A stretch of 34,158 nucleotides of DNA, taken from contig CAYMGK010000001.1 in assembly GCA_964389965.1 (NCBI GenBank), positions 2,964 through 37,121 of the forward strand, in the 5' to 3' direction. The position numbers were made by a program, and so were the translations under genes. The stretch is from an uncultured Clostridia bacterium. Its GTDB lineage: Bacteria; Bacillota; Thermosediminibacteria; Thermosediminibacterales; Tepidanaerobacteraceae. The notes under the pieces were generated by a model. That model saw nothing but the letters and a program-made list of their open reading frames with translations, searched no databases and had not been told where the DNA came from. Shown here piece after piece: positions 2-32,673 of this stretch. Position 1 is the first letter of the stretch. Every line of letters starts with the position of its first letter.

Positions 2-385
2 TTTAAAATTGTAAGAGTGAGAATAGCAAATGACGAACCTCTATTACTTGAAACAACCTATATCCCCGTCCACATATATCCTCAATTGAATCAATGGGAT
101 CTTAATAGAAAGTCCTTGTACTATATATTAAAAGTTGAAGGGGGAGTTTCCCTTGATTCCGCTATTGAAACATATGAACCCACAATTTTTGATAAAAACG
201 AGGCGGATTTATTAAAATGTAAGCATGGAACAACGGGGTTTTTCGTTGAGAGAATTGCATATACGGATATCAGGGAAGTATTTGAATATACCCAATCCAT
301 TATAAGGGGCGACAGGTGCAAGTTTAAAGTTACACTTAATAAAGATAGAGTAGGTTTTTCTAGGAGAATTCGGAATCTTGACTGA
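2..385 (+). CDS. GntR/HutC-family transcriptional regulator, C-terminal UTRA effector-binding domain (5' end outside window)
   Basis: The frame is open from base 2 (FKIVRVRIANDEPLLLETTYIP...GFFVERIAYTD...IIRGDRCKF). This resembles UTRA domains of HutC-type GntR regulators. The stop is at 383-385, immediately upstream of the kinase gene. Confidence 0.6.
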   Translation, partial: FKIVRVRIANDEPLLLETTYIPVHIYPQLNQWDLNRKSLYYILKVEGGVSLDSAIETYEPTIFDKNEADLLKCKHGTTGFFVERIAYTDIREVFEYTQSIIRGDRCKFKVTLNKDRVGFSRRIRNLD

Positions 386-418
386 CGACCTTTTGGTTTT
401 ATGCAAGGAGGCGCCTTC

Positions 419-1561
419 ATGGAAAAGGGTATACATAGATCCAATTTACTGGATACAGTGGAAAAAATGAAAGGACTAAGTCCAACTAATATTCATTCAA
501 CTATAGGATTCGATGGATTTATTGATGAAATACTCCATCTAGTTAACAAAAGGGAGAGTTTCGATAAATATTCTAGAATAAAATATATTAAAGATCTTGG
601 TGAAAGAGTGCTCAAGGCCTCTGGCCTGAGCACGAATATTGAAATGGTCCCAGTTCAAACAAAAATAGGTGGCAATGGACCAATAATGAGCAATGCATGT
701 GTTGAATTGGGATTTAAGGTTTCATGTATAGGGGCTTTTGGGTATCCCGATTTAAACCCGGTTTTCAATGATTTATCAAAAAAATGCCGTGTTTACACTA
801 TTTCCGATCCGGGGTACACAAATGCAATGGAATTCAATGATGGTAAGTTACTTCTAACTAAAAATCAGGTCTTCAATGAAATTACTTGGGAGAATTTAAA
901 GAAGAGGTTAGGAATAAAAAAACTCGCAAAGATAATTGGACAATCGGACCTTATAGGCATGGTGAACTGGACCATGATACCCCACATGACACATATTTGG
1001 GTGAAATTACAAAAACATGTTCTTCCCAAAACGGAACTTAATACGAAAAGGCCATTTGTTCTTGTAGATTTTGCCGATCCCGAAAAAAGAGAACGTAAGG
1101 ATATTCTAGAAGCTTTAGATGTTTTAAAAGGTTTTTCAGCATATTCCAAAGTTATTTTTGGCATGAATCTAAAAGAAGCCCACGAAATCATCAATGTGCT
1201 AGGATTATACAAGAATGATATACCCACGGATATAGATTTGGAAACACTGACTAGATTAATAGCAGAAAAAATGGGTATCTACTGTGTCCTTATACATCCG
1301 GTTGATCGTGCCGCTGCGGTAGTAGGCGGGAAATACTATGAAAGTCCCGGACCGTACACTCCAACTCCAATTTTGACTACTGGGGCCGGGGATAATTTTA
1401 ATGCTGGCTTTTGTCTAGGTCAAGTCCTAGGACTGACGATAAAACAGTCTTTAATAATAGGTAATGGGACTTCGGGCTTTTATGTGAGAAATGGGAGATC
1501 CCCTAATTATACGGAGTTAGTCGATTTTATAAAATATTGGTCCGAGTGTATTGACAAATAA
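419..1561 (+). CDS. PfkB/ribokinase-superfamily carbohydrate kinase
   Basis: The C-terminal motif PILTTGAGDNFNAGFCLG matches the PfkB (D)TxGAGD anion-hole signature. AAGGAGG at 405-411 lies 7 nt before ATG 419, so the ORF-track start at 401 is probably too early. Confidence 0.7.
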   Translation: MEKGIHRSNLLDTVEKMKGLSPTNIHSTIGFDGFIDEILHLVNKRESFDKYSRIKYIKDLGERVLKASGLSTNIEMVPVQTKIGGNGPIMSNACVELGFKVSCIGAFGYPDLNPVFNDLSKKCRVYTISDPGYTNAMEFNDGKLLLTKNQVFNEITWENLKKRLGIKKLAKIIGQSDLIGMVNWTMIPHMTHIWVKLQKHVLPKTELNTKRPFVLVDFADPEKRERKDILEALDVLKGFSAYSKVIFGMNLKEAHEIINVLGLYKNDIPTDIDLETLTRLIAEKMGIYCVLIHPVDRAAAVVGGKYYESPGPYTPTPILTTGAGDNFNAGFCLGQVLGLTIKQSLIIGNGTSGFYVRNGRSPNYTELVDFIKYWSECIDK

Positions 1562-1585
1562 TTTCATAAAAGGTGGATGCTTATA

Positions 1586-2647
1586 ATGAGCACAAATAGC
1601 AAAGAAATAACGGAAAATACTATTTTATGTCTTGTGTCGTTTATCGGAAATAGCTCAGGCTATAAACATATGGGTGAGTGCATGAAAGACGAGTCGATAA
1701 AACAAATCATTAGAAATACAGTGGATGAACTATGTAGTAGTGTGGAAACTGTGCGAGAACCGTGTCAGGACAATACTGATATTGCCCAATATATTGAAGA
1801 CTTAGGAAAAGGACAAAATATACAGAAAATATGCACTGAATGTTTGCACAGTCTTGGATCAAAGGGCGGTATTGTTGAAGCTACATTGAAGTATAGAAGC
1901 CAAGGGAAACTGCCCTATTATCTAGCTAAAGCCATTGCTCATGCTTTTCTGTTTCAAAATGATGAAGACGAGTTTTGTAAGGCTGTCCAGAATTATATAA
2001 AAAAATATGGCATATCGTCAGCTGTTAGAAAATATTGCAATCTTAGTAAAGAATGTGATTTGATCTACTTAATAACTCGCCACTACAATAGGTATTTGGC
2101 CGACAAAAGCATAAGTGAGGATTACCGTAAAGTTTCCATTATCAAAACCGCATATGAGGCAGGTTTTGCCGCTGAACGCAAATACCATGGATGTGCTCAA
2201 TGCACTTTATACGGCATGTATGGCATTACGGGGAAAGTAGATGAAGCTCTGTTCAGGGCCGCAAGTGGACTGTCAGGTGGTATAGCCCAATGTGGGGACG
2301 GCACATGTGGAGCCTATACTGGAGCTGCACTGTTCTTGGGAATGTTTGCGGGAAGAAGGCTAAAGTATTTTGATCATGACAAAGAAGAACAATACAGACT
2401 TGATGCTATCATTCAGAAAGTGCACGAGAGATTTATACAGACCTATGGGACAGTTATATGTAAAGAAGTACATAAAGCAATTTTTGGGCAGGCGTACGAT
2501 TTAAGGGATGATGAGGAGAAAGAGCAATTCAAAATTGCCGGTGGTCATGATGATAAATGTACTTCTGTTGTTGGGACTGCGGCAAGTTGGACCGCCGAAA
2601 TACTGCTTGAGGAAAAATTACTGGATCCTGGCGATTTTAAAATATAA
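1586..2647 (+). CDS. C_GCAxxG_C_C-family (putative redox-active) protein with an N-terminal extension of about 190 aa of unknown function
   Basis: The C-terminal half carries YHGCAQCTLYG ... GDGTCGAYTGAALFLG ... CKEV ... DKCTSVVG, typical of the C_GCAxxG_C_C family. AAGGTGG at 1570-1576 favours ATG 1586 over ATG 1577. Confidence 0.65.
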   Translation: MSTNSKEITENTILCLVSFIGNSSGYKHMGECMKDESIKQIIRNTVDELCSSVETVREPCQDNTDIAQYIEDLGKGQNIQKICTECLHSLGSKGGIVEATLKYRSQGKLPYYLAKAIAHAFLFQNDEDEFCKAVQNYIKKYGISSAVRKYCNLSKECDLIYLITRHYNRYLADKSISEDYRKVSIIKTAYEAGFAAERKYHGCAQCTLYGMYGITGKVDEALFRAASGLSGGIAQCGDGTCGAYTGAALFLGMFAGRRLKYFDHDKEEQYRLDAIIQKVHERFIQTYGTVICKEVHKAIFGQAYDLRDDEEKEQFKIAGGHDDKCTSVVGTAASWTAEILLEEKLLDPGDFKI

Positions 2648-2657
2648 CAGTGATTCC

Positions 2658-2796
2658 AGTGTGGAAACTCTTCCAAGGTAAAACTTATGTCAAAATGATT
2701 CTTTCAAGTAAGGCCGTCTTTATTCTTGGGATCAAGTCTTAGAATAATAAGTCTGGATTCAATGACTAGAATCACGAGTGTAATAATAAACAGGTG
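2658..2796 (+). repeat. Intergenic repeat element, copy A (paralogue of 20393-20566)
   Basis: The 83-nt core 2674-2756 aligns without gaps to 20409-20491 at about 80% identity by eye (66/83). The left flank (agtgtNgaaa) and right end (agtgtNaNaataaacNgg..gtg) are also shared. Confidence 0.6.
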
Positions 2797-2881
2797 TACT
2801 ACACTGGTGGCATATGACATTTACTGAGCTACATATGCAATGCTATCGGTGAAAAATATAATTAAGGGGGAATACAAACAA

Positions 2882-3964
2882 ATGAAAAGGCTTGTCTCGG
2901 TTTTGCTTATCACATGTTTAGCTATTACTTTACTTGTGGGCTGTGGTCAAAGTCCTACACCTTCAGATGAGGGTGAAGGCGAACCGGATGCACAGGAAGA
3001 AAAACAAATAACCATAGGGTTTTCTTTCCCAACGCTTCAGGAAGAAAGATGGCAGACTGAAAAGGACTTAGCTGAAGAGAAATCAAAAGAACTCGGTGCT
3101 AATTTCATCTATCAAGATGCAAATACCGATGCTACAACACAGAATTCTCAGATAGAAAATCTAATCACACAGGGAATCGATGTCTTAATAATAGGTGCGG
3201 CAGATACAAAAGCCGCAGCTACAGGTGTGGCGGCGGCACAAGAAGCAGGTATACCGGTAATAGCGTATTTGAGAATGGTGGATAGTGACAAACTCGATTG
3301 TTTTGTTGGATATGATTTTGTTAGAATTGGAGAAATTATGGCTGAAGCTGCTTTGGAAAGTGTGCCAAAGGGTAATTATGTTTTACTCAATGGAAGTGAG
3401 GCAGACAGTGTCGCACATCAATTAAGAGAAGGTTATCACAATATACTGGATGCAAAAGTAGATAGTGGTGACATCAATGTCATATTTGATCAATTTGTAT
3501 TAAATTGGGAACCTGCAAATGCAATGTCTGACATGGAAAACTGTCTAACTCAAAACAACAATGATGTGCAAGCTGTACTAGTAAATAATGATGGCATGGC
3601 AGGTGGTGCTATTCAGGCTCTAGGTGCACAGAATTTGATAGGAGAAGTTTTCGTTACTGGGATGGATGGTGATTTAGCCGCATGTCAAAGAATAGTAGAA
3701 GGGAAGCAGAACACAACTATAGTATTCCAGCATGACAAACTAATTGATGCTACCATGGAAGCGGCAATGGAACTAGCCCAAGGCAAACAACCGGCTGGTA
3801 TCAATGAGGAAGTTGAAAATGCCTTAACAATGGTCCCCGCTATATTGCTTGCTGCAGATTTAGTCCACAAGGATAATGTCAAAGAATTAATGATTGACAG
3901 CGGAATACACAAACTTGAAGATGTTTATAAAAATATACCTGAAGATCAATGGCCAGAAAACTAG
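2882..3964 (+). CDS. Sugar ABC transporter substrate-binding lipoprotein, XylF-like (CUT2 family)
   Basis: MKRLVSVLLITCLAITLLVGCGQ is a signal peptide with a lipobox. ITIGFSFPTLQEERWQTEKD...QNSQIENLITQGIDVLII...GIPVIAYLRMV closely parallels the E. coli D-xylose-binding protein. GGGGGA precedes ATG 2882. Confidence 0.85.
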   Translation: MKRLVSVLLITCLAITLLVGCGQSPTPSDEGEGEPDAQEEKQITIGFSFPTLQEERWQTEKDLAEEKSKELGANFIYQDANTDATTQNSQIENLITQGIDVLIIGAADTKAAATGVAAAQEAGIPVIAYLRMVDSDKLDCFVGYDFVRIGEIMAEAALESVPKGNYVLLNGSEADSVAHQLREGYHNILDAKVDSGDINVIFDQFVLNWEPANAMSDMENCLTQNNNDVQAVLVNNDGMAGGAIQALGAQNLIGEVFVTGMDGDLAACQRIVEGKQNTTIVFQHDKLIDATMEAAMELAQGKQPAGINEEVENALTMVPAILLAADLVHKDNVKELMIDSGIHKLEDVYKNIPEDQWPEN

Positions 3965-3979
3965 AATAAGTGGATCGAA

Positions 3980-4026
3980 GTTCATGTCTTGAGCATTGTT
4001 AGGGCTCAAGACATGGACCTTTTTTA
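3980..4026 (+). terminator. Intra-operon rho-independent terminator/attenuator after the binding-protein gene
   Basis: A 15-bp stem pairs 3980-3994 (gttcatgtcttgagc) with 4004-4018 (gctcaagacatggac), with one G-U pair. It is followed by c + tttttt at 4020-4025. The next gene starts at 4040. Confidence 0.6.
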
Positions 4027-4039
4027 AGGGGGCGGGATT

Positions 4040-5560
4040 GTGAATAATGAATATATACTAAAAATGAACGGAATAATAAAAGAATTTACGGGAGTTAGAG
4101 TACTTCACAATGTAAACTTTAAAGTTAAAAAAGGCGAAATTCATGCTATAGTTGGAGAAAATGGTGCGGGAAAATCTACTTTGATGAAAATATTAAGCGG
4201 TATATATCCATATGGACAGTATGAAGGGAGTATAATTTTAGAGGAAAGTGAAGTAAGATTTAACAGTGTAAAGTCATCGGAAGAGGCTGGCATTGAAATA
4301 ATACATCAGGAACTTGAATTAGTGCCCTATATGAGCGTGGGGGAAAATATTTTTCTGGGAAATGAACCTAAAAAGGGAATATTGATTGATTATAATGCAC
4401 TTAATAAAAGGTCTTTAGAAATCTTAAAAAGAGTTAATCTTCATGTTAAGCCCAATGTAATGATTCACAGTCTCGGTGTTGGAAAAAGGCAGCTTGTGGC
4501 TATTGCAAAAGCCCTTTCAAAAGAAGTGAAAATACTTATTCTTGATGAGCCTACCTCTGCACTGACAGAAGAGGAAACGGATAATCTTTTGAATATATTA
4601 AGAGAACTCAAAAGACAGGGTGTCACATGTATATACATTTCACATAAGCTTCAAGAGGTTTTAAAAATTGCAGATACTGTGACTGTCTTACGAGATGGTA
4701 GAAGCATTATAACAGAACCCGTAAAAGACATGACTGAAGATAAGATGATAAAATACATGGTTGGTAGAGAAATCACCAACAGATTTCCCAGAGAAGCCTG
4801 TGACATAGGTGATACCGTACTAAGTGTAAAAAACTTTTCAGTAATAGATCCGGAAACAAATGAAAAGATCATTGATGATATTAGCTTTGATGTAAGGAAA
4901 GGTGAGATACTAGGTGTCTCAGGTTTGATGGGGGCCGGTAGTACAGAACTTGTAATGAGTATTTTCGGAGCGGCACCGTATGTAACAAAAGGCGATATTT
5001 ATATTAATGGAGAAAAAGTTGAAATAAATTCACCCCTTGATGCCATCAAAATGGGTATTGGCCTTGTTACGGAAGATAGAAAGGATTATGGTCTTGTTCA
5101 ATGTCTAGACATTATCAAAAACACAACATTGTCAAGTCTTGATAATATTTCATCAAAAGGTATTATAAATAAGAATATGGAGATAAAAAAAGCATGTGAT
5201 TTTGTTGAAAGTCTTTCTATAAGAGCACCAAGTCTGGAATTGGAGGCAGAAAGATTAAGTGGAGGTAATCAGCAAAAGGTTGTACTTGCAAAGACGCTTA
5301 TGACTAATCCCAGTATACTTATCATGGATGAACCCACAAGAGGCATTGATGTAGGTGCAAAATATGAGATTTACATGATAATGAACAGGCTAATTCAAAA
5401 AGGTGTTGCAATAATCATGATTTCATCTGAATTACCCGAAATACTAGGTATGTCCGATAGGGTTATGGTAATAAATTGTGGTAAAAAAGCCGGTGAGCTT
5501 GACCGCGAAAATGCAGATCAGGAAACAATAATGACTTATGCTACATCGGAGGTTGTTTAA
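4040..5560 (+). CDS. Sugar ABC transporter ATP-binding protein with duplicated ATPase domains, XylG-like
   Basis: Walker A GENGAGKST, LSGGNQQK signature, ILILDEPT/LIMDEPT Walker B. The N-terminus ...GIYPYGQYEGSIILE...IIHQELELV...ENIFLGNE parallels XylG. GTG start with GGGGG upstream. Confidence 0.9.
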   Translation: MNNEYILKMNGIIKEFTGVRVLHNVNFKVKKGEIHAIVGENGAGKSTLMKILSGIYPYGQYEGSIILEESEVRFNSVKSSEEAGIEIIHQELELVPYMSVGENIFLGNEPKKGILIDYNALNKRSLEILKRVNLHVKPNVMIHSLGVGKRQLVAIAKALSKEVKILILDEPTSALTEEETDNLLNILRELKRQGVTCIYISHKLQEVLKIADTVTVLRDGRSIITEPVKDMTEDKMIKYMVGREITNRFPREACDIGDTVLSVKNFSVIDPETNEKIIDDISFDVRKGEILGVSGLMGAGSTELVMSIFGAAPYVTKGDIYINGEKVEINSPLDAIKMGIGLVTEDRKDYGLVQCLDIIKNTTLSSLDNISSKGIINKNMEIKKACDFVESLSIRAPSLELEAERLSGGNQQKVVLAKTLMTNPSILIMDEPTRGIDVGAKYEIYMIMNRLIQKGVAIIMISSELPEILGMSDRVMVINCGKKAGELDRENADQETIMTYATSEVV

Positions 5561-6730
5561 ATGGGATTACAAGAAAGTAAAATTGCTACAGAAAAAAAGG
5601 AAGGTTCCACGAATTTTAGATTTAATATTACTGCATATGCAATGGTTATAGCCTTAGCTGTGATTTGGATCATGTTTCAATTTTTGACAAAAGGGACGTT
5701 CTTATCAGTTAGAAACCTTTCAAATTTATTTAGACAGATGTCCATAACCGGTATCTTGGCAATAGGCATGGTTATGTGTATCATATCGGGTAATTTTGAC
5801 TTATCCGTGGGGTCTGTAGTCGGAATTACAGGTGCTTTGGCGGCTGTGGCTCAAACCCATTGGGACCTTGCCCCGTATTTATCAGTGCTAATTGTAATTT
5901 TAGTTGGAGTTGTTATTGGATTATGGCAGGGTTTTTGGATAGCATACAGAAATGTTCCGGCATTCATAGTGACACTTGGTGGTATGATGATATTTAGGGG
6001 GATGACTTTATGGGTAACAAAGGGCAACGCAATACCTATTTCCAATGAGGGTTTTATCTTTATAGGTCAACATTATCTACCGAAACTCTTAGGTTACCTT
6101 TTAGCAGTTGTCAGCATCGTTGCATACTTATATCTAGATATTAGAAATAAAAAAACGAGGATCAGTTATGGTTTTGATGTTCCCAGTGCCATCAGGTCTT
6201 TGCTAAATTACGCCATTGCAACTGTTTTGATAGGTGTATTTATTGTCATAATGAACCTATACCAAGGTGTTCCGATAACTGTGATAATACTTCTTTCCTT
6301 GTTTATGTTGTTTTCATTTATTTTAAGCAATACACAGTTTGGTCGTTATATATATGCTATTGGGGGCAATATCAATGCTGCAAAGATTTCTGGTATAAAT
6401 ACAAAAAGAATAACCTTATTAGTTTTCACATTGATGTCTGTATTAGCCTCTATATCAGGTTTAATACTTGCTGCTAGGCTTGCGGCGGCTACCCCCACAG
6501 CCGGTAATATGTATGAAATGGATGCAATTGCTTCATGTGTTATAGGCGGAGTGAGCCTAAAAGGTGGAAGAGGCACGGTTTTTGGGGCAATTGTCGGTGC
6601 ACTGGTAATGGCAAGTTTGAACAATGGCATGAGTCTTATGAATATAGCCTCATCAATACAGTATATGGTAAATGGCTTAGTACTCTTGATGGCAGTATGG
6701 TTTGATATATCAACTAATGTAGGAGAGTAA
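5561..6730 (+). CDS. Sugar ABC transporter permease, XylH-like
   Basis: Polytopic membrane protein with CUT2 permease motifs (FDLSVGS, IYAIGGN..AA..SGI, GGVSLKGGRGTV). The ATG directly abuts the ATPase stop codon (TAAATG). Confidence 0.85.
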   Translation: MGLQESKIATEKKEGSTNFRFNITAYAMVIALAVIWIMFQFLTKGTFLSVRNLSNLFRQMSITGILAIGMVMCIISGNFDLSVGSVVGITGALAAVAQTHWDLAPYLSVLIVILVGVVIGLWQGFWIAYRNVPAFIVTLGGMMIFRGMTLWVTKGNAIPISNEGFIFIGQHYLPKLLGYLLAVVSIVAYLYLDIRNKKTRISYGFDVPSAIRSLLNYAIATVLIGVFIVIMNLYQGVPITVIILLSLFMLFSFILSNTQFGRYIYAIGGNINAAKISGINTKRITLLVFTLMSVLASISGLILAARLAAATPTAGNMYEMDAIASCVIGGVSLKGGRGTVFGAIVGALVMASLNNGMSLMNIASSIQYMVNGLVLLMAVWFDISTNVGE

Positions 6731-6797
6731 AAGAATTATTTATATACAAAAGACCGGTAGATGGTTTTAAATATAGCATGTGAGGTGCAATGAACAT

Positions 6798-7556
6798 ATG
6801 AAAACCACGGATCCTAAAAAACGGGCCTTATTGGAAAGTTTTAAAAATGGCCTTATTGTTTCTTGTCAGGTACAAAAAGATGACCCGATTTATACAGAGG
6901 ATATTGTAGTTAAAATGGCTCAAGCTGCACAATGGGCTGGTGCAGTTGGAATCAGAGCCAATTCCCCGGAACAGATTAGCGCTATAAAAGCAGAAGTGGA
7001 TTTGCCTGTTATTGGGCTTTATAAAATATGGCATGAAGGCACTGATGTGTTTATAACCCCTACATTGGAAGCGGCAAAAGAAGTGTGGAAAGCGGGAGCG
7101 GAGGTAATAGCACTTGATTGCACTGAGCAAGTCACACACATGGGTACTAGGGCTTATGAATTACTGCCAATTGTGAAGGCAGAGATTCCAGAAGCAATTG
7201 TTTTCGCCGATGTTTCAAATTACGATGAGGGCAAAAGAGCTATTGACTTAGGTGCAGATATTGTTGCACCTACACTTTATGGATATACAAAAGAAACTGC
7301 ACATATTGAAAATCCCGATTTTAGGGAGTTTGCAAGAATGTGTAGGGATTTTAAAGAGCATGTGTATGTGATGATGGAGGGACATATTTACACCCCGGAA
7401 GATGCCATGAAATGCCTTTACTTAGGGGCTCATGCTGTAGTAGTAGGAAGTGCAATCACAAGGCCTCATTTAACTGCAAAGCGCTTTGTTGATTTGTTAA
7501 GTGGCTATCAGGAAAACTGGAGAGAAGCGGAAAGGAAAAGGCATATAAATGAGTAA
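6798..7556 (+). CDS. nanE: NanE-family (N-acylmannosamine-6-phosphate 2-epimerase-like) enzyme
   Basis: GLIVSCQVQKDDPIY...MAQAAQWAGAVGIRANSPEQISAIKAEVDLPVIGLYK...DVFITPT...GAEVIALDCT follows the NanE core. GAGGTG at 6782-6787 precedes ATG 6798. The 3' end overlaps the GRE start by 8 nt. Confidence 0.8.
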   Translation: MKTTDPKKRALLESFKNGLIVSCQVQKDDPIYTEDIVVKMAQAAQWAGAVGIRANSPEQISAIKAEVDLPVIGLYKIWHEGTDVFITPTLEAAKEVWKAGAEVIALDCTEQVTHMGTRAYELLPIVKAEIPEAIVFADVSNYDEGKRAIDLGADIVAPTLYGYTKETAHIENPDFREFARMCRDFKEHVYVMMEGHIYTPEDAMKCLYLGAHAVVVGSAITRPHLTAKRFVDLLSGYQENWREAERKRHINE

Positions 7557-9828
7557 GTTTAATGTGGAAGTCTCACAAAATGTAGAGGTCAGTGCTAAGA
7601 TACCCAGTGAGAAAACTCCTTCACAGCAGCTCGAAATAATGAAAGACTATACCAGGGTACACAAAGATACTAAAGACTTACCAAAGGCAAAACGGGAAAT
7701 CGAGTGCCTAAAAGTACTTTACCCCACACTATTTAGGCAAATTCAAAATGATGATAAAATCGCCGGAAGATTAGATTTTTTGCCTATTGGTTTTGGATGT
7801 GTCACTTCTGTTGGAGGTGTAGGTCATTACTGTGTTTTTAGTAAACTTAAAGCACTTGAAAATCAACTGGGGACTGCAGAAGAAAAACAAGATTTGAAAG
7901 AACTCTACAATTATTGGTTAAAACACGATCTAAAGACATTGTATTGTAATGAAATAATTACGGATGGTACTATTGGGCCTTTCATTGACTGCGAATATCC
8001 TTTAATAGCAACAGCTCGGCTCAGTGGTATGATGCTCAACTACCATAAACTCATGGAACTGGGGATAAAAGGTTTGCGTGAGGAAATCTCGACAAAGCTC
8101 AAGGAAAAACCAAATAACAACTTTTTAGAGGCTTGCCTTGAGGCTTTGGATTTATTTGTAATTTGTGCTCGGCATTTGCAAAACATGGTGGAGAATCAAA
8201 GACTTACAGCAAGTCACAAGAGAAAGGCTGAATTAGATATTATCTGGAATAGCCTTGAACATATAAAGCATGAAAAACCTACAACCTTCCACCAAGCGTT
8301 ACAACTCTTCTGGTTATTTGCATTGCTAGCCGGTGTTATTAATTATGGAAGAATGGACGATGTCCTAGGGCCTTTTCTTAAACACGATTTAGAAAATAAG
8401 ATAATAACGGAACATGAGGCATTTGGTTATCTTAAAAGCCTATGGACATTAATAGAGAACCGGCGCACAACGGTTAATGGCCGGATTATTGTCGGGGGTA
8501 AAGGGCGAAGACATCCAGAAGCCGCCGATGTGTTTCTAAAACTTGCCATGAAAGTAACCCAAGAATGTCGATATGTGGAGCCCCAATTCACATTGCGTGT
8601 AAGTGATGAGACATCTGAGGAGATTTTTGATATAGCATTAGAGCTCTTGGGCCAAGGTGTTACATATCCTACATTATATAATGATGAAGTAAATATTCCT
8701 GCAGTCATGCATGCCATGAGAGTTGATGAGCAAACCGCCCAACAGTATGTGCCTTTTGGTTGTGGAGAATTTGTAATTCAGGGTCAAAGTACTGGGACTC
8801 CAAATACCTGTATAAATCTCCTGAAACTTCTTACAATCACCCTTAATCAAGGGGTGGATCCGGTGGACAATTTGAAAAAGTGTGGCCCTATAAGAATTAA
8901 ACCACTGACAGAATATAGAACCTTCCAAGAACTCTACGATAAATATAAAGAACTCCTAAATTACTATTTCGATCTGTCTGTAAAGGCACAATACCATTCT
9001 TATAAAGTTATGAATAGTGAAGTGTCCTTTTTATTTACCAGTATTTTAATGGATGATTGTATAGAACGGGGTAGGGCAGTTTTAGATGGGGGTATCCGCT
9101 ATCTTGGCGGGACTAACGAGACTTATGGTAATATCAACACATCTGATGCACTTTACGCCATTAAAAAACTGGTTTTTGATACTGGAAAATATTCCTTAGC
9201 TCAATTGCATAAGGCGGCCTTGGCTAATTTTGAAGGGTATGAGAGGATTCGCAAGGATTTGCTTGAATGCGCCAAATACGGAAACGATATTGATGAAGTT
9301 GATGAATTAGCCGATGATCTCTTCCGCTTTGTAGCAAATGGCATCAGGGATCGGGGTATAAAAATAGGTATGGATTACTATTTGATTGTCATAAGCAATA
9401 ACCAACTCAATACAGAATGGGGTAGGCGCACAGGTGCATCTTTAGATGGTAGGCCTTTCGGTTTTTATATGAATCCTGCAAATAATCCCCAAGGAGGAGC
9501 CGACAAATCAGGCCCCACAGCCATGCTAAATTCAATTTCAAAATTTGAGGCCAAATATCATGGAGGTTCTGTTCAAAATATAAAATTTTCTCCAAAACTC
9601 TTTAATGAACAGCGGGAAAAAATAAAAGCCATGATAAAGGGGTATTTCAAAAGAGGTGGCTGCCAACTAATGGTTACTGTAGTAGATAGGGGAGTTTTGG
9701 AAGATGCAGTAAAGCACCCGGAACTCTATCCAAACCTACTCGTAAGGGTCAGTGGGTTCAGTGCAGTGTTCGTAAATCTAGAGCCTGATGTACAAAAGGA
9801 GATTATGAGTAGGGTTTTATATGAGTGA
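7549..9828 (+). CDS. Glycyl radical enzyme (PFL2/dehydratase-like clade), substrate unknown
   Basis: C-terminal glycyl radical motif LLVRVSGFSAVF (Gly736, codon 9754-9756). Thiyl loop PFGCGEF (Cys405 at 8761-8763, Glu407). Other GRE blocks are present: TFHQALQLFW, NYGRMDD, IIVGGKG, PQFTLRV, TYPTLYNDE, GASLDGRP, GADKSGPTAMLNS. Confidence 0.9.
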   Translation: MSKFNVEVSQNVEVSAKIPSEKTPSQQLEIMKDYTRVHKDTKDLPKAKREIECLKVLYPTLFRQIQNDDKIAGRLDFLPIGFGCVTSVGGVGHYCVFSKLKALENQLGTAEEKQDLKELYNYWLKHDLKTLYCNEIITDGTIGPFIDCEYPLIATARLSGMMLNYHKLMELGIKGLREEISTKLKEKPNNNFLEACLEALDLFVICARHLQNMVENQRLTASHKRKAELDIIWNSLEHIKHEKPTTFHQALQLFWLFALLAGVINYGRMDDVLGPFLKHDLENKIITEHEAFGYLKSLWTLIENRRTTVNGRIIVGGKGRRHPEAADVFLKLAMKVTQECRYVEPQFTLRVSDETSEEIFDIALELLGQGVTYPTLYNDEVNIPAVMHAMRVDEQTAQQYVPFGCGEFVIQGQSTGTPNTCINLLKLLTITLNQGVDPVDNLKKCGPIRIKPLTEYRTFQELYDKYKELLNYYFDLSVKAQYHSYKVMNSEVSFLFTSILMDDCIERGRAVLDGGIRYLGGTNETYGNINTSDALYAIKKLVFDTGKYSLAQLHKAALANFEGYERIRKDLLECAKYGNDIDEVDELADDLFRFVANGIRDRGIKIGMDYYLIVISNNQLNTEWGRRTGASLDGRPFGFYMNPANNPQGGADKSGPTAMLNSISKFEAKYHGGSVQNIKFSPKLFNEQREKIKAMIKGYFKRGGCQLMVTVVDRGVLEDAVKHPELYPNLLVRVSGFSAVFVNLEPDVQKEIMSRVLYE

Positions 9829-9857
9829 GACATGTATTCGAGAAGGAGAGCAAACCT

Positions 9858-10751
9858 GTGACCCAATTAAATATTTTTGATATTCAACGATGCTGTTTTC
9901 ATGATGGTCCCGGAATACGCACAGTGGTGTTTTTTCAGGGATGTCCCCTACACTGTCCTTGGTGTGCTAATCCTGAATCACAAAAGACAAAAAAGCATCT
10001 TCTACATTTTAAGAGCAAATGCACTTTATGTGGAGAATGTATCAAAGCCTGTCCTGAAAATATAATTGTGGTTAAACACGGCAAATGGCAGGTTGACAGG
10101 AAGAAATGCACTGGATGTGAACAATGTGCAAAAGTCTGTCTACAAAGTGCAGTAAAATTTTCAGGAGAAAAAAGAACCGTCGGGGAAATACTTGAAGTGG
10201 TGGAAAGAGATTGGGACTATTATGAAACCTCCCAAGGTGGGTTGACGATTTCAGGGGGAGAGCCTTTTGCCCAACCGGAAGGATTGGTTGAATTACTTAG
10301 AGCAGCAAAAGAGCAGGGTCTACACACCGCTGTGGAAACCTGTGGCCACACTTCCACTAAAAATATTTTGACTGCAGAGCCCCATATAGATTTATTTTTA
10401 TATGATATAAAACATCATGATATTGGGACTTTTCGTAGAATAACCGGTGGAGATTTGCCCTTGATCTTAGGTAATTTGGATCTTTTAGCTCAGAAATCAC
10501 CGGAGAAAGTGGTACTTAGAGTGCCGGTTATTCCCGGTTTCAATAATGACATAAAAACCCTTGAGGGTATTTTTACATTAGCCAAAGGGAAAAACCTCAA
10601 AAAAATAGAACTTTTGCCCTACCACACTTTAGGTAAAAGTAAGTACATACAAATGGGTTTAAAATATCAGATGGGAGAAGTATCGGATCTCACTTCCCAA
10701 GACTTGGAGCCTTATAGACAGCTCGGCATGAAAATGGGCTTAAACACTTAA
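9858..10751 (+). CDS. Glycyl-radical-enzyme activating enzyme (radical SAM, with two auxiliary ferredoxin-type clusters)
   Basis: IFDIQRCCFHDGPGIRTVVFFQGCPLHCPWCANPE gives the CX3CX2C radical-SAM motif. CTLCGECIKACP and CTGCEQCAKVCL are two CX2CX2CX3C motifs. GAAGGAGAG at 9842-9850 favours GTG 9858. GTG 9825, overlapping the GRE stop, is the alternative. Confidence 0.9.
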   Translation: MTQLNIFDIQRCCFHDGPGIRTVVFFQGCPLHCPWCANPESQKTKKHLLHFKSKCTLCGECIKACPENIIVVKHGKWQVDRKKCTGCEQCAKVCLQSAVKFSGEKRTVGEILEVVERDWDYYETSQGGLTISGGEPFAQPEGLVELLRAAKEQGLHTAVETCGHTSTKNILTAEPHIDLFLYDIKHHDIGTFRRITGGDLPLILGNLDLLAQKSPEKVVLRVPVIPGFNNDIKTLEGIFTLAKGKNLKKIELLPYHTLGKSKYIQMGLKYQMGEVSDLTSQDLEPYRQLGMKMGLNT

Positions 10752-10783
10752 ATATATTTTTGCTATTTGTTACAGAACAGGGC

Positions 10784-10816
10784 ATCGGACATCCGGCGAA
10801 TCGCCGAATGTCCGAT
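10784..10816. terminator. GC-rich nested hairpin at the convergent junction of the GRE operon and the TRAP operon
   Basis: atcggacat-c-cggcg-aat-cgccg-a-atgtccgat forms 9 + 5 bp. There is no clear U-tract on either strand, so terminator function is only inferred from its position. Confidence 0.4.
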
Positions 10817-10850
10817 ATCCCACGAAGCGTAGGGCAAAAACTACACTAGT

Positions 10851-11834
10851 TTACAAGACCCCGACTTCTTCATAATACTTTTTAGCACCATCATGTAATG
10901 GCAATCCCGCTAAATTTTTCACAGCATTTTCGATAGACATTTCCTTTAAAGCATTATGGGTATTCCTTAATGAATCTATGTTTTCCCACAACACCTTTGT
11001 CATTTCATAAACAGTATCTTCAGGTACACTTTCATCCACCATCAATGTGATTACAATACTTGTTGTTACAACATCTTCATCTTGACCATCATAAGTCCCC
11101 GCCGGAATAATCGCCCTGTTATACCAGGGATATTGTTCAACTAGTTTTTCAATTACATCTTCATCAAAGGAAATCAATTTACCATTAGCAGTTGCACACA
11201 TTTCCGACACTGCCGCTGTAGGAAGTCCTGCCTGTATCCATGCACCTTCAAGTTGTTTGTTGCGCATTAAATCAACTGCTTCAGTAAAGCCCACAAATTG
11301 AGCCTTGATATCATCAGGATAATTCATGCCTGCAATTTCAAAATAAATACCTGTTTCTACCTCAGGAGTACTGCCCGATGCACCAGGAGCAAAGCGTTTG
11401 CCTTTAAAGTCCTGCATGGAATTAACACCGGAATCTCTTGTGGAAACAACTTGGTTGTAGTTTGAATATAAAGCAGACAAAATCCTAACCCCATCATATG
11501 ACCTACCTTCAAACTTACCTATACCCTGCTTTTGTTCAGTGATAATGCTAGTAACAGCGACTGATACCTGAGCATCACCGGTGGACATCAACCCGAGATT
11601 TTGCACACCCCCATTTGATGCTTCGGCAGAAACTTCCACGCCATCAATGTTTTTATTCCACAATTCCGCAATAGCCGCCCCAATTGGATAAATAGCACCA
11701 GAAGTGGTAGCCGTTGGGAACTGTAAGTACATAGGCTTTCCTACCTGTTCATCACTTGTTTTGCCGGAAGAGCAACCGGCAAGTGTACATATAACTAAAA
11801 CTGCACACATAGCAAAAACCAACCACTTTTTCAT
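10851..11834 (-). CDS. TRAP transporter solute-binding lipoprotein, TAXI family
   Basis: MKKWLVFAMCAVLVICTLAGCSS is a lipobox signal peptide. FPTATTSGAIYPIGAAIAELWNK...VSAEASNGGVQNLGLMSTGDAQV is typical of TAXI receptors. Confidence 0.85.
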   Translation of the reverse strand: MKKWLVFAMCAVLVICTLAGCSSGKTSDEQVGKPMYLQFPTATTSGAIYPIGAAIAELWNKNIDGVEVSAEASNGGVQNLGLMSTGDAQVSVAVTSIITEQKQGIGKFEGRSYDGVRILSALYSNYNQVVSTRDSGVNSMQDFKGKRFAPGASGSTPEVETGIYFEIAGMNYPDDIKAQFVGFTEAVDLMRNKQLEGAWIQAGLPTAAVSEMCATANGKLISFDEDVIEKLVEQYPWYNRAIIPAGTYDGQDEDVVTTSIVITLMVDESVPEDTVYEMTKVLWENIDSLRNTHNALKEMSIENAVKNLAGLPLHDGAKKYYEEVGVL

Positions 11835-11891
11835 AATTTCTTTCCCCTTTCCCTTTTTATGATACTAATGTGGGTCTACAGTGATATACAC

Positions 11892-13931
11892 TTAACCTAC
11901 TACAATTTGCTTTTTTTCCCGTTGGTTTATAATATACTGGTAACCTACTAAAACCATAGCCATAACAGCACCGATTATGTCAGTAAAAGCTCGTGGATCT
12001 ATACTTAAAAACGCAATTGCCAAACATACCCCCCTTTCGATGATACTACATCTTCTTATCAACCAACCCTGAGTGAAAACTGCAAGAAAGTATATACCAA
12101 TTAACGCACCTATGGCAGTTCTAATTATTGTCAGTGCACTTGTGCCAACAGGTGCACACCCAAGTAGTAAAACAGGGTTGAGTAGAAAGAAAAACGGCAA
12201 TATAAAACCCGATAATCCAACTTTTACAGCTTGTAAACCACTTTTAGTAAAATTGGATTTTGCGATTCCGGCTGCAACATACACAGACATTGCAACAGGT
12301 GGTGTGATATTGGATAGTGATGCATAAATCAAACAAAACATATGTGCCGGGATAGGGGCAGAACCTACTTGTATCATGACTGGAATTGCTACAGCAGTTA
12401 TTATTACATATGCGGCGATACCGGGTACTCCCATGCCCAAAATCGAACTCATGAGTGCAACCATTATACCGGCTTTAAGCAGTTGACCCGGTCCCACAAA
12501 CCTCAACATTATATAGCCAAACTTTAAGCCAAGGCCTGTCAAGGAAACTGTTCCTACAATTATGCCGATAACAACACAGCACACTCCAACACTCACTGCA
12601 CCTCTTGCTCCTTCATCACAGGCAGTTACAATCTTTTTAAACCCCATTCGGGTTTCAGGCCTTATCCAAGATGTTATAACCGTTACAATAATAGAGGCAA
12701 CACATGCAAATAAGGGTGTATAACCCATAGCCATGATTGCAAGTAACGAAACAAGTGGTGCCAACATATGCCCTTCCTTTTTTAATACTTCTACGACATT
12801 TGGGATATGTTCTTTAGATAATCCTTTTAAACCCAGTTGTCTTGCTTCTAAATGTACTGCAAACAGTAAACCCATGTAATACAAAAATGCAGGAATGATT
12901 GCCGCTAACAACACTACAGAGTAAGAAACACCAAGGAATTCCGCCATTAGAAATGCTACTGCACCCATTATGGGAGGACAGAACTGTCCACCAGTGGCCG
13001 CTGCTGCCACTACCCCGGCGGAAAAATCTGAGTCATACCCGCTTTTTTTCATCATGGGAAGGGTGATGGATCCGGTTGTTGCTACATTGGCAATTGCAGA
13101 GCCGTTTATCATGCCCATCAGGCCACTTGCAACTACTCCCACTTTTGCAGGACCGCCGGGACTTTTTCCCACAAGTGTAAGAGATATATTGTTGATAAAG
13201 CTACTAAAACCACTGTGGTTTAAAAATGAACCAAAAAGTACAAATACAAATATATATGTTGCCGAAACCCCAATCCCTGCCCCGAAAATCCCTTGGCTAC
13301 TCCAAAACATATGTCCAATTAACCTAGAAACCGTAAAACCGCCATGACTGAGGGTACCTGGAATCCAGTGACCTGCAAAATTATACATAAGGAAGATTGC
13401 TGCAAGCCACACTAAGCCCCCTGCAGCTCTTTTTGCCGCAAAAAATACTAGAATAATCGCTATAACTCCTAAAAAATCCTCAAAAGGTGTGACAAAGCCA
13501 CCTGTAAGGGCAATTCTGGAATAATTCATAACAAAATAACTAAATACATATAATGTCGTGGCGATCAGTATTGCATCGAAGATAGTTGGCATTTTCCTTT
13601 TTCTGTTTTCTTTGTTGTGACCTGGATAAAGCATGAAACAAAATACCAATAAAAAGGTTGCATGTAATGCGCGCAATGTTATAGCTTCCATGGTCCCGAT
13701 AGTTGTATAATATAGTTGAAATATGACCCATACTATAGAAAATCCCAGCAAAACTTTTTTCCATAGACCTATATAAGTCCTCGTCTTACTTTCAGTGTCT
13801 ACTTTTTCTAAAATTTCTTGGGTTTGTCGTTCCATATCCTCAAGATCTTCTTTGGATATATCGCTTGCCGCTCTAATACGTTCTTTACTAGTATTGGTTT
13901 CCCCTGATTTTATTTGTTTCCTTTTGGTCAT
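11892..13931 (-). CDS. TRAP transporter fused permease (TAXI-associated, DctQ/DctM-like fusion)
   Basis: A 679-aa polytopic membrane protein lying directly upstream of the TAXI receptor gene on the same strand. GAAAGGGG precedes the ATG. Confidence 0.85.
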   Translation of the reverse strand: MTKRKQIKSGETNTSKERIRAASDISKEDLEDMERQTQEILEKVDTESKTRTYIGLWKKVLLGFSIVWVIFQLYYTTIGTMEAITLRALHATFLLVFCFMLYPGHNKENRKRKMPTIFDAILIATTLYVFSYFVMNYSRIALTGGFVTPFEDFLGVIAIILVFFAAKRAAGGLVWLAAIFLMYNFAGHWIPGTLSHGGFTVSRLIGHMFWSSQGIFGAGIGVSATYIFVFVLFGSFLNHSGFSSFINNISLTLVGKSPGGPAKVGVVASGLMGMINGSAIANVATTGSITLPMMKKSGYDSDFSAGVVAAAATGGQFCPPIMGAVAFLMAEFLGVSYSVVLLAAIIPAFLYYMGLLFAVHLEARQLGLKGLSKEHIPNVVEVLKKEGHMLAPLVSLLAIMAMGYTPLFACVASIIVTVITSWIRPETRMGFKKIVTACDEGARGAVSVGVCCVVIGIIVGTVSLTGLGLKFGYIMLRFVGPGQLLKAGIMVALMSSILGMGVPGIAAYVIITAVAIPVMIQVGSAPIPAHMFCLIYASLSNITPPVAMSVYVAAGIAKSNFTKSGLQAVKVGLSGFILPFFFLLNPVLLLGCAPVGTSALTIIRTAIGALIGIYFLAVFTQGWLIRRCSIIERGVCLAIAFLSIDPRAFTDIIGAVMAMVLVGYQYIINQREKKQIVVG

Positions 13932-14036: not shown

Positions 14037-14873
14037 TCAGTCTATGGGGTAAGAACCTAGAAACTTATAAAAACTTGCCACAGATTTAAGTTCCCTCAAC
14101 GTGTTATCTATAGCTTTAGTACCTTTAGTGCCTTCAAATTCAATAAAAAAAATATATTCACCTAACATCCTTTTTGAGGGTCTAGACTCGATTTTTGTGA
14201 GATTTATTCCCCGGTTTGCAAATAGTTTTAGACTATTTGCAAGACTTCCCGGTTTATTTTCCATAGAAAAAGCCAATGTTGTCTTACCATCTGCAGAAGT
14301 AGGTAAATCTTCTGCAGAGATTACGTAAAATCGAGTCTTATTATTTTTTGTTCCCTGAATATTTTTTGCTAAAAGCTGTAGCCCGAAGTTCTTACCTAAT
14401 CTAATACTGCCGATGGCGGCAGTGTTTCCACCTCTCTCAGAAACAAGCCTCGCTGCCCCGGCAGTTGAAGATGTTTCTAAAAACTTAACCTTAGGTAGCT
14501 TTTTCTTCAAATAATCCCTACATTGAAAGATAGCCTGTGGATGAGAATAAATCACCTCAATATCTTTTAGAGAAACATTTTTACAAGCAAAAAGGTTTTG
14601 TTTAATGGGTAAAATCACTTCACCTATTATATTTGCTTTAATTTCATGAATGAGGAGGTCTATAGTAATGTTAACAGAGCCTTCCAAAGAATTTTCCGCT
14701 GGCACAACTGCAACATCAGTATCTTTTCCTATGGCATACATCAACTCAGAAATCGAAGGAAAAGCCTCCTTTTCCCAGTTATCCAAATTTAGATTTTGCC
14801 TGTTAAGCCATTTTTCCAAAGCTTCTTCGGTAAATGTACCCTTGGGTCCTAAAAAACCTATTCTTTTCAACAT
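14037..14873 (-). CDS. pheA: Prephenate dehydratase
   Basis: IGFLGPKGTFTEEA at the N-terminus. The catalytic domain is followed by an ACT domain (TLAFSMENKPGSLANSLKLFANRGINLTKIESRPSK...YIFFIEFEG). Confidence 0.9.
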   Translation of the reverse strand: MLKRIGFLGPKGTFTEEALEKWLNRQNLNLDNWEKEAFPSISELMYAIGKDTDVAVVPAENSLEGSVNITIDLLIHEIKANIIGEVILPIKQNLFACKNVSLKDIEVIYSHPQAIFQCRDYLKKKLPKVKFLETSSTAGAARLVSERGGNTAAIGSIRLGKNFGLQLLAKNIQGTKNNKTRFYVISAEDLPTSADGKTTLAFSMENKPGSLANSLKLFANRGINLTKIESRPSKRMLGEYIFFIEFEGTKGTKAIDNTLRELKSVASFYKFLGSYPID

Positions 14874-14940: not shown

Positions 14941-14987
14941 AAAAAAAATCAAAAAACCTCCCGCCCCTACATAGGGGCGAGAGGTTT
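14941..14987 (-). terminator. T-box leader terminator
   Basis: On the - strand, aaaccucucgccccuauguaggggcgggagguuuuuugauuuuuuuu has a GC-rich stem followed by a long U run, 68 nt upstream of the pheA ATG. Confidence 0.8.
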
Positions 14988-15228
14988 CCCGCGGTACCAC
15001 CCAGATTGATCCACTCGAACGCAGATCCACTTTTTGAAGGTACGGGACAAACAAATGTCCTTATACCTCCTTCCCTTTTACGGTGGAAGCTCCGGCTCAG
15101 CCTACTAACTTAATGCATTCAGCTGACAGCTCAAGGGGGAACTTCAAAGGATTCCTTCATACCGGCTCTCACCATCTCGGCTCGCTTTAAATCCAAATAT
15201 CCGTCTACTTTCCCCTATCACAGCTTTT
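14941..15228 (-). promoter_or_regulatory. T-box riboswitch leader controlling pheA
   Basis: Read on the - strand, the T-box motif caaucuGGGUGGUACCGCGggaaacc lies at plus coordinates 14985-15010. Stem I elements are present (AGUA, GAGAUGGUGAGAG, GAA). The specifier region is GAAGUUCC. A terminator overlaps the T-box 3' side. Confidence 0.85.
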
Positions 15229-15262
15229 ATCTATGAAGATTGGAATAATTATGTTAGTTCGC

Positions 15263-32413: not shown

Positions 32414-32454
32414 TATACTACAATTTCATAAAGCTATGCCTCACTTTTCGCAAG

Positions 32455-32600: not shown

Positions 32601-32673
32601 ATAAACATCCCGGTTTATTGAGTTGAGCTATCTCAATTGGGTAAAGTGGAGGGATTTAGGTAATTTTGAATAT

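Follow-up and report, generated by a model that had tools for sequence, protein, structure and literature searches.

A conserved NanE-like/glycyl radical enzyme module, probably acting on a sugar phosphate, in a Clostridia bacterium

An operon with an orphan glycyl radical enzyme

The stretch of DNA analysed here, called the window below, comprises 34,158 nucleotides from an uncultured Clostridia bacterium of the Tepidanaerobacteraceae (GenBank assembly GCA_964389965.1, contig CAYMGK010000001.1, positions 2,964 to 37,121 of the forward strand). At its 5′ end, nine open reading frames (ORFs) run head to tail on the + strand (2–10751). The last three encode a NanE-like TIM-barrel enzyme, a glycyl radical enzyme (GRE) and a GRE activase. 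A first-pass annotation, made from the sequence without database searches, had described nine co-directional, tightly spaced or overlapping genes and proposed an orphan GRE sugar locus; all nine ORFs were found where it had placed them. Our analysis indicates that the three core genes very probably constitute a conserved, uncharacterised sugar-phosphate GRE module, which points to an undescribed oxygen-free breakdown route for an unusual phosphorylated sugar.

Domains of the window ORFs were assigned from Pfam and NCBIfam profile matches. The NanE-like gene (6780–7556, +; PF04131, 168 bits; NF002231, 243.9 bits against a cut-off of 189) likely starts at the ATG at 6798. It overlaps by 8 nucleotides (nt) the GRE gene (7549–9828, +), whose 759-amino-acid product matches PF02901 (PFL-like) and PF01228 (Gly_radical), and the GRE gene overlaps by 4 nt the activase gene (9825–10751, +), which encodes a radical SAM protein (TIGR02494, 334 bits against a cut-off of 174). 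Upstream, the window opens on the 3′ part of a GntR/HutC-family regulator gene (2–385, +) that covers the UTRA effector domain only (PF07702, 85 bits); its 5′ end and helix-turn-helix lie outside the window edge, and its NCBIfam matches are weak and of the GntR family. A GntR/UTRA regulator was likewise found in four of the related loci described below (L049, L077, L080 and L085). The regulator gene is followed by a PfkB kinase of the 'prokaryotic ketohexokinase' (Khk) type (401–1561, +; PF25270, 203.7 bits, full length) and by a 356-amino-acid fusion of Mannitol_dh_C and C_GCAxxG_C_C domains without a Rossmann domain (1577–2647, +; PF08125, PF09719). The domain content described earlier was confirmed except for this last protein, which had been taken for a plain C_GCAxxG_C_C protein.

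The remaining three genes encode a CUT2 ABC importer, consisting of a XylF-like sugar-binding protein (2840–3964, +; PF13407, 191 bits; TIGR02634 xylF, 291 bits against a cut-off of 389.55), an ATPase with duplicated ABC domains (4040–5560, +; NF010069 xylose ATPase, 697.9 against 699) and a GguB/XylH-like permease (5561–6730, +; PF02653; NF040906 GguB, 398.9 against 450). The XylFGH equivalog cut-offs were missed by binding protein, ATPase and permease alike; judged from these matches, the transporter is a CUT2 monosaccharide importer that looks xylose- or monosaccharide-like. The sole larger gap in the operon (193 nt) lies upstream of the binding-protein gene. A promoter/terminator scan and an Rfam search found no regulatory element within the operon. 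Downstream of it, a hairpin at 10780–10821 (−29.2 kcal/mol, z = −4.66), between the activase gene and convergent TAXI-TRAP genes, folded better than every one of 200 shuffled sequences and likely marks the 3′ end of the operon.

The GRE carries the radical motif RVSG736FS (PF01228, 92.9 bits; Gly736 codon at 9754–9756), which agrees with the superfamily pattern RVxG[FWY]. Its Cys loop, FGC405GE407F (codons of Cys405 and Glu407 at about 8761–8769), is of the single-Cys Cys-x-Glu (CXE) type and is conserved in the GRE family and its wider clade. Cys405, the catalytic Cys expected inside the ten-stranded barrel, is invariant in 54 aligned sequences. According to a review of GREs, the CXE loop is the hallmark of GRE 1,2-eliminases and isomerases, in which hydrogen is abstracted from a C-OH carbon and a group is expelled from the neighbouring carbon. 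The activase, with CPLHCPWC (CxxxCxxC) and two ferredoxin-like Cys motifs, is of the usual radical-SAM type that activates GREs.

None of the characterised clades includes the GRE, these being pyruvate formate-lyase (PFL), glycerol dehydratase (GD) and propanediol dehydratase, CutC, HypD, the sulfolyases, the decarboxylases, benzylsuccinate synthase and YbiW/PflD. The first-pass annotation had expected as much, and NCBIfam cut-offs, Protein Data Bank (PDB) scores, fold comparison and a neighbour-joining tree all agreed. All NCBIfam equivalog cut-offs were missed (HypD, 265 versus 1100 bits; CutC, 239 versus 1050; TIGR01255 PFL, 87.8 versus 994), as were those for the sulfopropanediol dehydratases (about 220 versus 1000) and PFL2-3 (316 versus 678). 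PDB sequences scored 231 bits (glycerol dehydratase), 226 (HypD), 219 (YbiW), 216 (PflD) and 201 (CutC). An AlphaFold2 model based on a 54-sequence alignment had a pLDDT of 93.3 and a pTM of 0.93; an earlier model from 11 close homologues (pLDDT 60) was discarded. Searched with Foldseek, the model matched essentially every eliminase, isomerase and sulfolyase at TM scores of 0.84–0.87 and 21–25% identity, with no preferred neighbour. The GRE therefore resembles the 1,2-eliminases (GD, propanediol dehydratase, CutC and HypD) in fold, in the CXE loop and in having an activase with extra Fe-S clusters, and differs from them in its low identity, in scoring under all their cut-offs and in the absence of their general-acid His and substrate loops.

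YbiW and PflD were the best PDB matches, weakly (41–45 bits), for the N-terminal active-site half. The full-length GRE was 27–28% identical to E. coli YbiW and PflD (YbiW and PflD share 37%) and was placed outside their branch in the neighbour-joining tree. The 'GH' His that aligns with GD His164, YbiW His165 and the GQGH motif of PflD is absent, and the loop at this position reads ARLSG-MML(N/D)Y. Also missing are an 'ESNxxS' loop and a 10-residue aromatic loop. Instead, the GRE clade has an invariant Arg157, Arg312 and GGKGR motif, which suggest an anionic substrate.

Conservation of the three-gene module

One genome per species was scanned for relatives of the GRE; 272 genomes matched, and the counts that follow come from the best 80 loci. 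The co-occurrence of ROK kinases and phosphotransferase systems (PTS), GFO/IDH/MocA (GFO) oxidoreductases and TIM proteins were scored over 74 loci and fructose-6-phosphate aldolase (FSA) over 87. The other neighbour counts, that of the ROK family included, were obtained by de novo clustering and are given as loci per cluster; some of them deviate slightly from the scored counts. The GREs of the best 80 loci were 62–70% identical to that of the window, and their hosts belonged to Bacillota, Bacteroidota, Spirochaetota and Actinomycetota, the Bacillota being Clostridia, Bacilli (Listeria, Enterococcus, Lacticaseibacillus) and Erysipelotrichia. Metagenomes added relatives of up to 79% identity and very many Parabacteroides distasonis copies.

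A NanE-like gene of 66–81% identity was present within 10 kb of the GRE gene in 72 of the 80 loci, usually directly upstream, and an activase gene in 77. The two genes were typically 0–30 nt apart or overlapping, and in a few loci the GRE and activase genes had no NanE-like gene nearby. Because the three genes recur together in 72–77 of 80 genomes from four phyla, their co-occurrence is not due to chance. The module has spread horizontally. Conservation of the neighbourhood, which the first-pass annotation had named as a test, held for this core and not for the rest of the nine-gene operon; the Khk kinase and the C_GCAxxG fusion were found in none of the 80 related loci and a related CUT2 transporter in only a few.

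The closest relative (79% identity) has the order ROK–NanE-like–GRE–activase, with the ROK gene where the window has Khk. Among the 74 loci scored for phosphorylation genes, 34 had a ROK kinase only, 7 a mannose-type PTS only and none had both; this mutual exclusivity supports the phosphorylation step postulated from the window. Such a step is implied in every case, with an interchangeable enzyme: a ROK kinase, a mannose-type PTS or, here, an ABC importer plus a Khk-type kinase, which is the local solution to uptake and phosphorylation. The invariant logic is a regulator, then sugar uptake and phosphorylation, then the NanE-like enzyme, GRE and activase.

The most frequent neighbours were glucokinase-like ROK kinases (36 loci), DeoR regulators (32), GFO oxidoreductases (30 of 74) and AraC regulators (28), followed by xylose-isomerase-like TIM proteins (15 of 74), DUF1080 '3-keto-disaccharide hydrolase' proteins (10), a deoC gene that is a true equivalog (231 bits against a cut-off of 117; 8–10 loci), a cytoplasmic GH94-superfamily-like protein of about 740 amino acids encoded within the operon (9–10), manA for phosphomannose isomerase (PMI; 6–8), the mannose-type PTS (7), NagB/AgaI-like proteins (5) and Fe-type alcohol dehydrogenases (Fe-ADH; 3). 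Cof- or beta-phosphoglucomutase (beta-PGM)-type HAD sugar/hexitol phosphatases were encoded in several loci.

Anaerobes of the gut and of other habitats commonly carry the module. Nearly all P. distasonis matches have it, and its carriers also include Enterococcus (E. hulanensis), Listeria (L. immobilis), Anaerostipes, Alistipes, Treponema, Clostridium vincentii and Propionispora vibrioides. The tight conservation and the transfer between phyla suggest that it probably handles a widespread, overlooked sugar. With a core of three genes and carriers that can be cultivated, the question is directly testable. In Lacticaseibacillus baoqingensis (L065, 6517–7701, −), an inserted IS605 OrfB/TnpB-like gene with a Cas12f-like TNB domain separates the NanE-like gene from the activase gene and points to mobile elements having been active in the module.

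The GRE also belongs to a wider clade. Searched exhaustively with HMMER, a set of 1.84 billion protein representatives yielded many GREs of about 750 amino acids at 33–53% identity (350–909 bits), all nearer to the window GRE than is any solved GRE. They have in common the same loop deletions, the motifs [YF]R..G, R...GG.GR and GCGE[YF], and the missing His. In the tree they form a star-like radiation apart from YbiW and PflD, comprising dozens of clusters at 50% identity. No NanE-like gene was found in 80 metagenomic loci of the sister branches (L091–L170). The context of these loci was nonetheless one of carbohydrate metabolism, with AraC (18 loci), GFO (7), GH130 (6), GH92 (5), AKR (5), PfkB (4) and gluconolactonase (4) genes, and likewise CUT1 ABC genes. 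Members of the wider clade (P0173–P0263) were seen in mannoside and other carbohydrate contexts, and none is represented in the PDB or in the NCBIfam equivalog models.

Candidate substrates and reactions

The NanE-like protein aligned over its full length to solved NanEs (148–158 bits). In S. aureus NanE, Gln11, Arg40 and Lys63 surround the C1 aldehyde, Lys63 being catalytic; Asp124 is an active-site residue, Glu180 contacts the C5-OH, Arg208 the C3- and C4-OH, and Tyr149 the acetamide methyl group. All of these (Q11, R40, K63, D124, Y149, E180 and R208) were invariant in 59 of 59 GRE-linked NanE-like sequences. The same subfamily, which is very tightly conserved and has a C-terminal extension, carries nine invariant changes near the active site (L13Q, R/K64I, D65W, M122F, T144P, A179M, N182H, G204S and K210H). 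It departs from the published NanE signature x-P-x-I-G-I-x-K-[basic], reading LPVIGLYKIW with Ile and then Trp after the Lys. Judging from these residues, enolate (alpha-carbonyl) chemistry has almost certainly been retained and specificity altered. The enzyme may epimerise the carbon beside a new carbonyl in the GRE product; it may be the pathway aldolase, its Lys coming to lie above C2 if the atoms from C2 to C6-P are superimposed; or it may act first, on a true 2-substituted aldohexose-6-P, as an amino-sugar route would have it.

Sugar-phosphate GREs have been recognised only since 2024, with two enzymes. According to Ma et al. 2024, as summarised in PMC13450708 and PMC12441222, YbiW and PflD are ring-opening C–O lyases of 1,5-anhydroglucitol-6-P and 1,5-anhydromannitol-6-P (AM6P), which bears out the precedent cited in the first-pass annotation that such GREs act on anhydro-sugar phosphates. 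Their product is 1-deoxy-fructose-6-P, which an FSA-type aldolase encoded next to them cleaves. A review of June 2026 lists YbiW and PflD as the only sugar-phosphate GREs and describes whole GRE clades without annotated function. No paper that couples a GRE with NanE, N-acetylmannosamine (ManNAc) or ROK, or that reports a further variant of anhydroglycolysis, was found in the searchable literature.

Like YbiW/YbiY and PflD/PflC, the module pairs a CXE-loop GRE with a dedicated activase, lies in a sugar uptake and phosphorylation operon under an AraC- or DeoR-type regulator, often with a HAD phosphatase (as ybiV beside ybiW), and includes an invariable TIM-barrel partner enzyme. Fructose-type PTS genes stand directly upstream of DeoR–GRE–activase in Lacrimispora and Hungatella (L066 and L069), as they stand ahead of the GRE genes in E. 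coli frwCB-pflDC. Unlike in the YbiW and PflD systems, the partner is NanE-like and not FSA, the sole FSA (1 of 87 loci) belonging to a neighbouring PflD operon; the GRE itself differs in its 27–28% identity, in the absence of the His loop and of two active-site loops that they possess, and in the clade-specific Arg157, Arg312 and GGKGR. What is new here is the partner enzyme and the remodelled pocket, while a GRE/activase sugar-phosphate lyase system is of a known kind.

Gene context offered further clues. The P. distasonis island encodes a ROK kinase, the NanE-like enzyme, GRE, activase and a sugar O-acetyltransferase, then an AraC regulator, and then a DUF1080 protein, GFO, EEP, a second GFO and a sugar-phosphate isomerase-like protein; the second GFO scores as an equivalog of the BT_2158 family (843 bits; cut-off, 750). 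The AraC regulator is thus common to the module and a BT2156-2159-type 3-keto-glycoside operon, in P. distasonis as in other Bacteroidota. The modules of Parabacteroides, Dysgonomonas and Tannerella resemble BT2156–BT2160 of B. thetaiotaomicron in their DUF1080, two GFO and sugar-phosphate isomerase-like TIM genes, whereas B. thetaiotaomicron has no GRE there and the window has none of those genes, the link being one of neighbourhood only. The hydride acceptor of the periplasmic dehydrogenase of BT2156–2160 has been proposed to be 'another as yet unidentified sugar', which the enzyme would reduce.

Oxygenases were found at two places. In L082 (8867–10213), the GRE operon contains a MocD-like di-iron desaturase/hydroxylase and a MocE-like Rieske ferredoxin, followed by PMI and a hexitol/mannitol-1-P-phosphatase-like HAD protein. 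On the Persicobacter plasmid pPP4 (L171, 11227–11982), a PhyH-family dioxygenase gene lies directly upstream of a sister-clade GRE gene. These oxygenases may do with O2 what the radical step does without it, solving an inert C–H or C–O problem such as ether cleavage. Together with the 3-keto-glycoside link, they may show the anaerobic fate of anhydro or ether sugars from that pathway or from the diet. In an Erysipelotrichales genome (L049, 13245–19167, −), an orthologue of E. coli PflD (57% identity) is encoded together with its own activase and with an aldolase of the FSA type (46% to FsaA). These genes are convergent to the NanE-like/GRE/activase operon and about 1 kb from it, which makes a two-GRE sugar island.

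Stereochemically, 1,5-anhydromannitol is equivalent to 2-deoxy-fructopyranose, so that phosphorylation by a ketohexokinase-type enzyme or by a fructose PTS would place the phosphate at position 6. DeoC, Fe-ADH and PMI are plausible downstream enzymes. The GH94-like protein (L010, L024, L028, L038, L054, L067, L074 at 8066–10300, L075, L076 and L085), sometimes encoded beside a beta-PGM-like HAD protein, gave a weak superfamily match and no homologue in a PDB sequence search; one possibility is that it sets free the pathway sugar as a new kind of disaccharide phosphorylase or hydrolase. Taken over the other genomes, the context points more towards a phosphorylated ether or anhydro hexose than towards a hexosamine-6-P, with no clue being decisive.

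Our preferred, and still tentative, reading is that the GRE is a radical C–O lyase whose substrate is a phosphorylated hexose analogue with an ether bond, of the anhydrohexitol kind. The nine genes would then form a single catabolic operon built around the three-gene module. Ordinary acid/base enzymes would be unable to open the substrate, and the likeliest candidate is an ether-type sugar, for instance a 1,5-anhydrohexitol 6-phosphate, which could derive from anhydrofructose or from a 3-keto-glycoside elimination pathway. By a thiyl-radical/ketyl mechanism the GRE would cleave the C–O bond and leave a sugar phosphate with an open chain and a carbonyl group. At the carbon beside this carbonyl, the NanE-like enzyme, with its full Lys/Glu enolate machinery, would then bring about an epimerisation or, with lower probability, a cleavage of the aldol type, and the end product would be one accepted by common aldolases and glycolysis. 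The route would work like the 'anhydroglycolysis' of E. coli YbiW and PflD, as a distant analogue and not as a member of those families.

Several observations weigh against this proposal. The retained NanE residues are suited to an aldohexose-6-P in its open-chain form, one that has an acidic C2-H and a C5-OH and contacts Tyr149 through an N-acetyl group. An anhydrohexitol is no NanE-type substrate, and the YbiW/PflD product 1-deoxy-fructose-6-P has no aldehyde, its ketone being shifted by one carbon towards the phosphate, with the C5-OH out of register; the NanE-like step is not cleanly explained. The GRE pocket differs markedly, without the His and the two active-site loops of GD, YbiW and PflD. 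An FSA-type aldolase was present in 1 of 87 loci, and the co-resident PflD in L049 implies that the GRE does something other than AM6P cleavage. The transporter of the window operon looks xylose- or monosaccharide-like, which is no specific pointer to such a sugar. Finally, the anhydro/ether assignment draws on context that varies among lineages and comes in part from single loci (L049, L082 and the Persicobacter plasmid).

With the intact NanE machinery taken at face value, the NanE-linked GRE would be the first tractable member of a large, entirely uncharacterised clade and would catalyse a reaction new to GREs. In place of a ring opening of the YbiW/PflD type, it would eliminate a group from, or rearrange, by radical chemistry, an aldohexose 6-phosphate that is 2-substituted (with an N-acyl group, for example) and able to take the open-chain form. 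We regard this as possible but rather doubtful. Features common to the clade are the missing general-acid His, three shortened active-site loops, an invariant Arg157 and Arg312, a GGxGR motif and a GCGE[YF] loop.

An amino-sugar route is unlikely. In it, the NanE-like enzyme and its ROK kinase (or PTS) would act as a pair of the NanK/NanE type that makes and epimerises an N-acyl-hexosamine 6-phosphate, on which the GRE would then carry out a radical C–N or C–O elimination. It would account for the invariance of all NanE catalytic and substrate-contact residues, including Tyr149 on the acetamide methyl, and for the NanE-like score above the NCBIfam NanE subfamily cut-off. A ROK gene beside the NanE-like gene mirrors nanK-nanE of sialic-acid catabolism (ManNAc to ManNAc-6-P to GlcNAc-6-P). 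The PTS IIC and IIA proteins scored best, below cut-off, against the GalNAc/GalN models AgaW and AgaF; a NagB/AgaI-like gene was present in 5 loci, and GH18-LysM and GH20 genes adjoin some operons. The GRE pocket, enlarged by three loop deletions, could also hold an N-acetyl group. However, GlcNAc-6-P and ManNAc-6-P are already degraded by hydrolytic NagA and NagB, which leaves no obvious use for radical chemistry, and we know of no radical C–N or C–O elimination on an amino sugar phosphate within the GRE repertoire. Unlike in the NanK/NanE system, there is no nanA, nanT, nagA and nagB set, the NanE-like gene is always coupled to a GRE, and the ROK kinase is glucokinase-like (233 bits) and not NanK-like (108–124 bits). 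A NagA-type deacetylase was not found among the annotated conserved neighbour clusters, in a search that was non-exhaustive. The changes R64I, D65W, N182H, G204S and K210H flank the catalytic Lys, Glu and Arg and argue for an altered substrate, and the 3-keto-glycoside, PMI and DeoC neighbours would stay unexplained.

Dehydration by a GD-like GRE is less probable again. Loss of water from a vicinal diol, in the phosphate of a hexitol or an aldose, would give a 2- or 3-deoxy carbonyl sugar phosphate, which a DeoC-type aldolase would split to acetaldehyde or hydroxyacetone and the phosphate of a triose or tetrose. By sequence and by fold, the top PDB match is nominally B12-independent glycerol dehydratase, but its margin over other GREs is negligible (231 versus 216–226 bits, all at TM 0.84–0.87). 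The residues that we take to bind the diol in GD (His164, the Ser282 loop and the Tyr339 loop) are absent or deleted. A bona fide deoC gene occurs in 8–10 loci, which is only about 12% of them. Hexitol hints come from the Mannitol_dh_C domain in the window and the hexitol/mannitol-1-P-phosphatase-like HAD protein in L082, and Fe-ADH or Zn-ADH genes lie near some loci; against these, ROK kinases and the mannose-type PTS act on pyranose sugars and not on hexitols, and a 2-deoxy product would have no C2 stereocentre for a NanE-like epimerase.

The GRE chemistry of our preferred reading could also be combined with a NanE-like aldolase, whose Lys over C2 of a 1-deoxy-2-ketohexose-6-P would yield hydroxyacetone and glyceraldehyde-3-P, as a counterpart of FsaA/FsaB. 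Each E. coli sugar-phosphate GRE is encoded beside a TIM-barrel Lys aldolase, whereas here the partner is NanE-like and FSA is absent from 86 of 87 loci. Minimal loci, with a PTS or DeoR gene plus the NanE-like, GRE and activase genes, would in that case be sufficient for the whole path into central metabolism. The overlay of C2 to C6-P would match the chain length of ManNAc-6-P, and there is a new invariant His beside each of Glu180 and Arg208. Nevertheless, we consider this combination quite improbable. The full epimerase residue set is retained, which argues for unchanged chemistry; to our knowledge, no NanE-family aldolase exists to serve as precedent; L049 carries both FSA and a NanE-like gene; and some loci have the GRE and activase with no NanE-like gene nearby.

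That the GRE is a PFL or another known enzyme, adjoining sugar genes by chance, can practically be dismissed: its public annotation is 'pyruvate formate lyase family protein', but the PFL score is 87.8 versus 994 bits, FGCGEF has a single Cys where PFL carries an adjacent Cys-Cys pair, the NanE-like linkage is kept across four phyla, and catabolic regulators and transporters always flank the GRE. Two further candidates were examined. A sulfoquinovose C–S lyase was rejected, there being no sulfoquinovosidase or sulfite-handling genes and 6-phosphorylation being implied. Phosphate as the leaving group, suggested by Arg157 near the leaving-group pocket, was set aside, as it would waste the ATP or phosphoenolpyruvate invested.

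Window-specific genes and surroundings

The window fusion protein belongs to an uncharacterised family in which proteins resembling mannitol-1-P dehydrogenase are joined to a C_GCAxxG_C_C domain. Its full-length relatives have the arrangement MtlD(N+C)-C_GCAxxG and about 570 amino acids (L089, 10001–11710; L090, 3250–4950), and they lie within a conserved AKR–PfkB–fusion–OMPdecase (HPS/KGPDC-like)–SIS module. The window protein is N-terminally shortened and lacks the Rossmann domain, as do P0128 and P0145. We considered whether the window kinase is the PfkB of this MtlD-C_GCAxxG module and rejected it, as the two are not homologous. Homologues of the window Khk-type kinase elsewhere are stand-alone genes in housekeeping-like contexts.

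Convergent to the operon lie the genes of a TAXI-type TRAP transporter (10851–13931, −), which encode an NMT1_3 binding protein of 327 amino acids and a fused DctM-type permease of 679 amino acids. Farther downstream the genes are of housekeeping type (pheA, rpoN, gap-cggR-pgk-tpi-gpmI-eno, addAB and an H+-PPase), indicating that the locus is chromosomal, in a low-GC (about 38%) Bacillota-type genome. A T-box leader (14970–15230, −; 110.6 bits against a gathering score of 93) precedes a prephenate dehydratase/ACT gene (14037–14873, −). The segment 15435–24259 (+) holds rpoN and then the glycolytic operon of gap, cggR, pgk, tpi, gpmI and eno, in which gap stands ahead of cggR; the order in B. 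subtilis is cggR-gapA. Near the far end of the window, a lysine riboswitch (32452–32638, +; 106 bits) lies upstream of a gene for an SBP_bac_3 amino-acid-binding protein (32738–33598).

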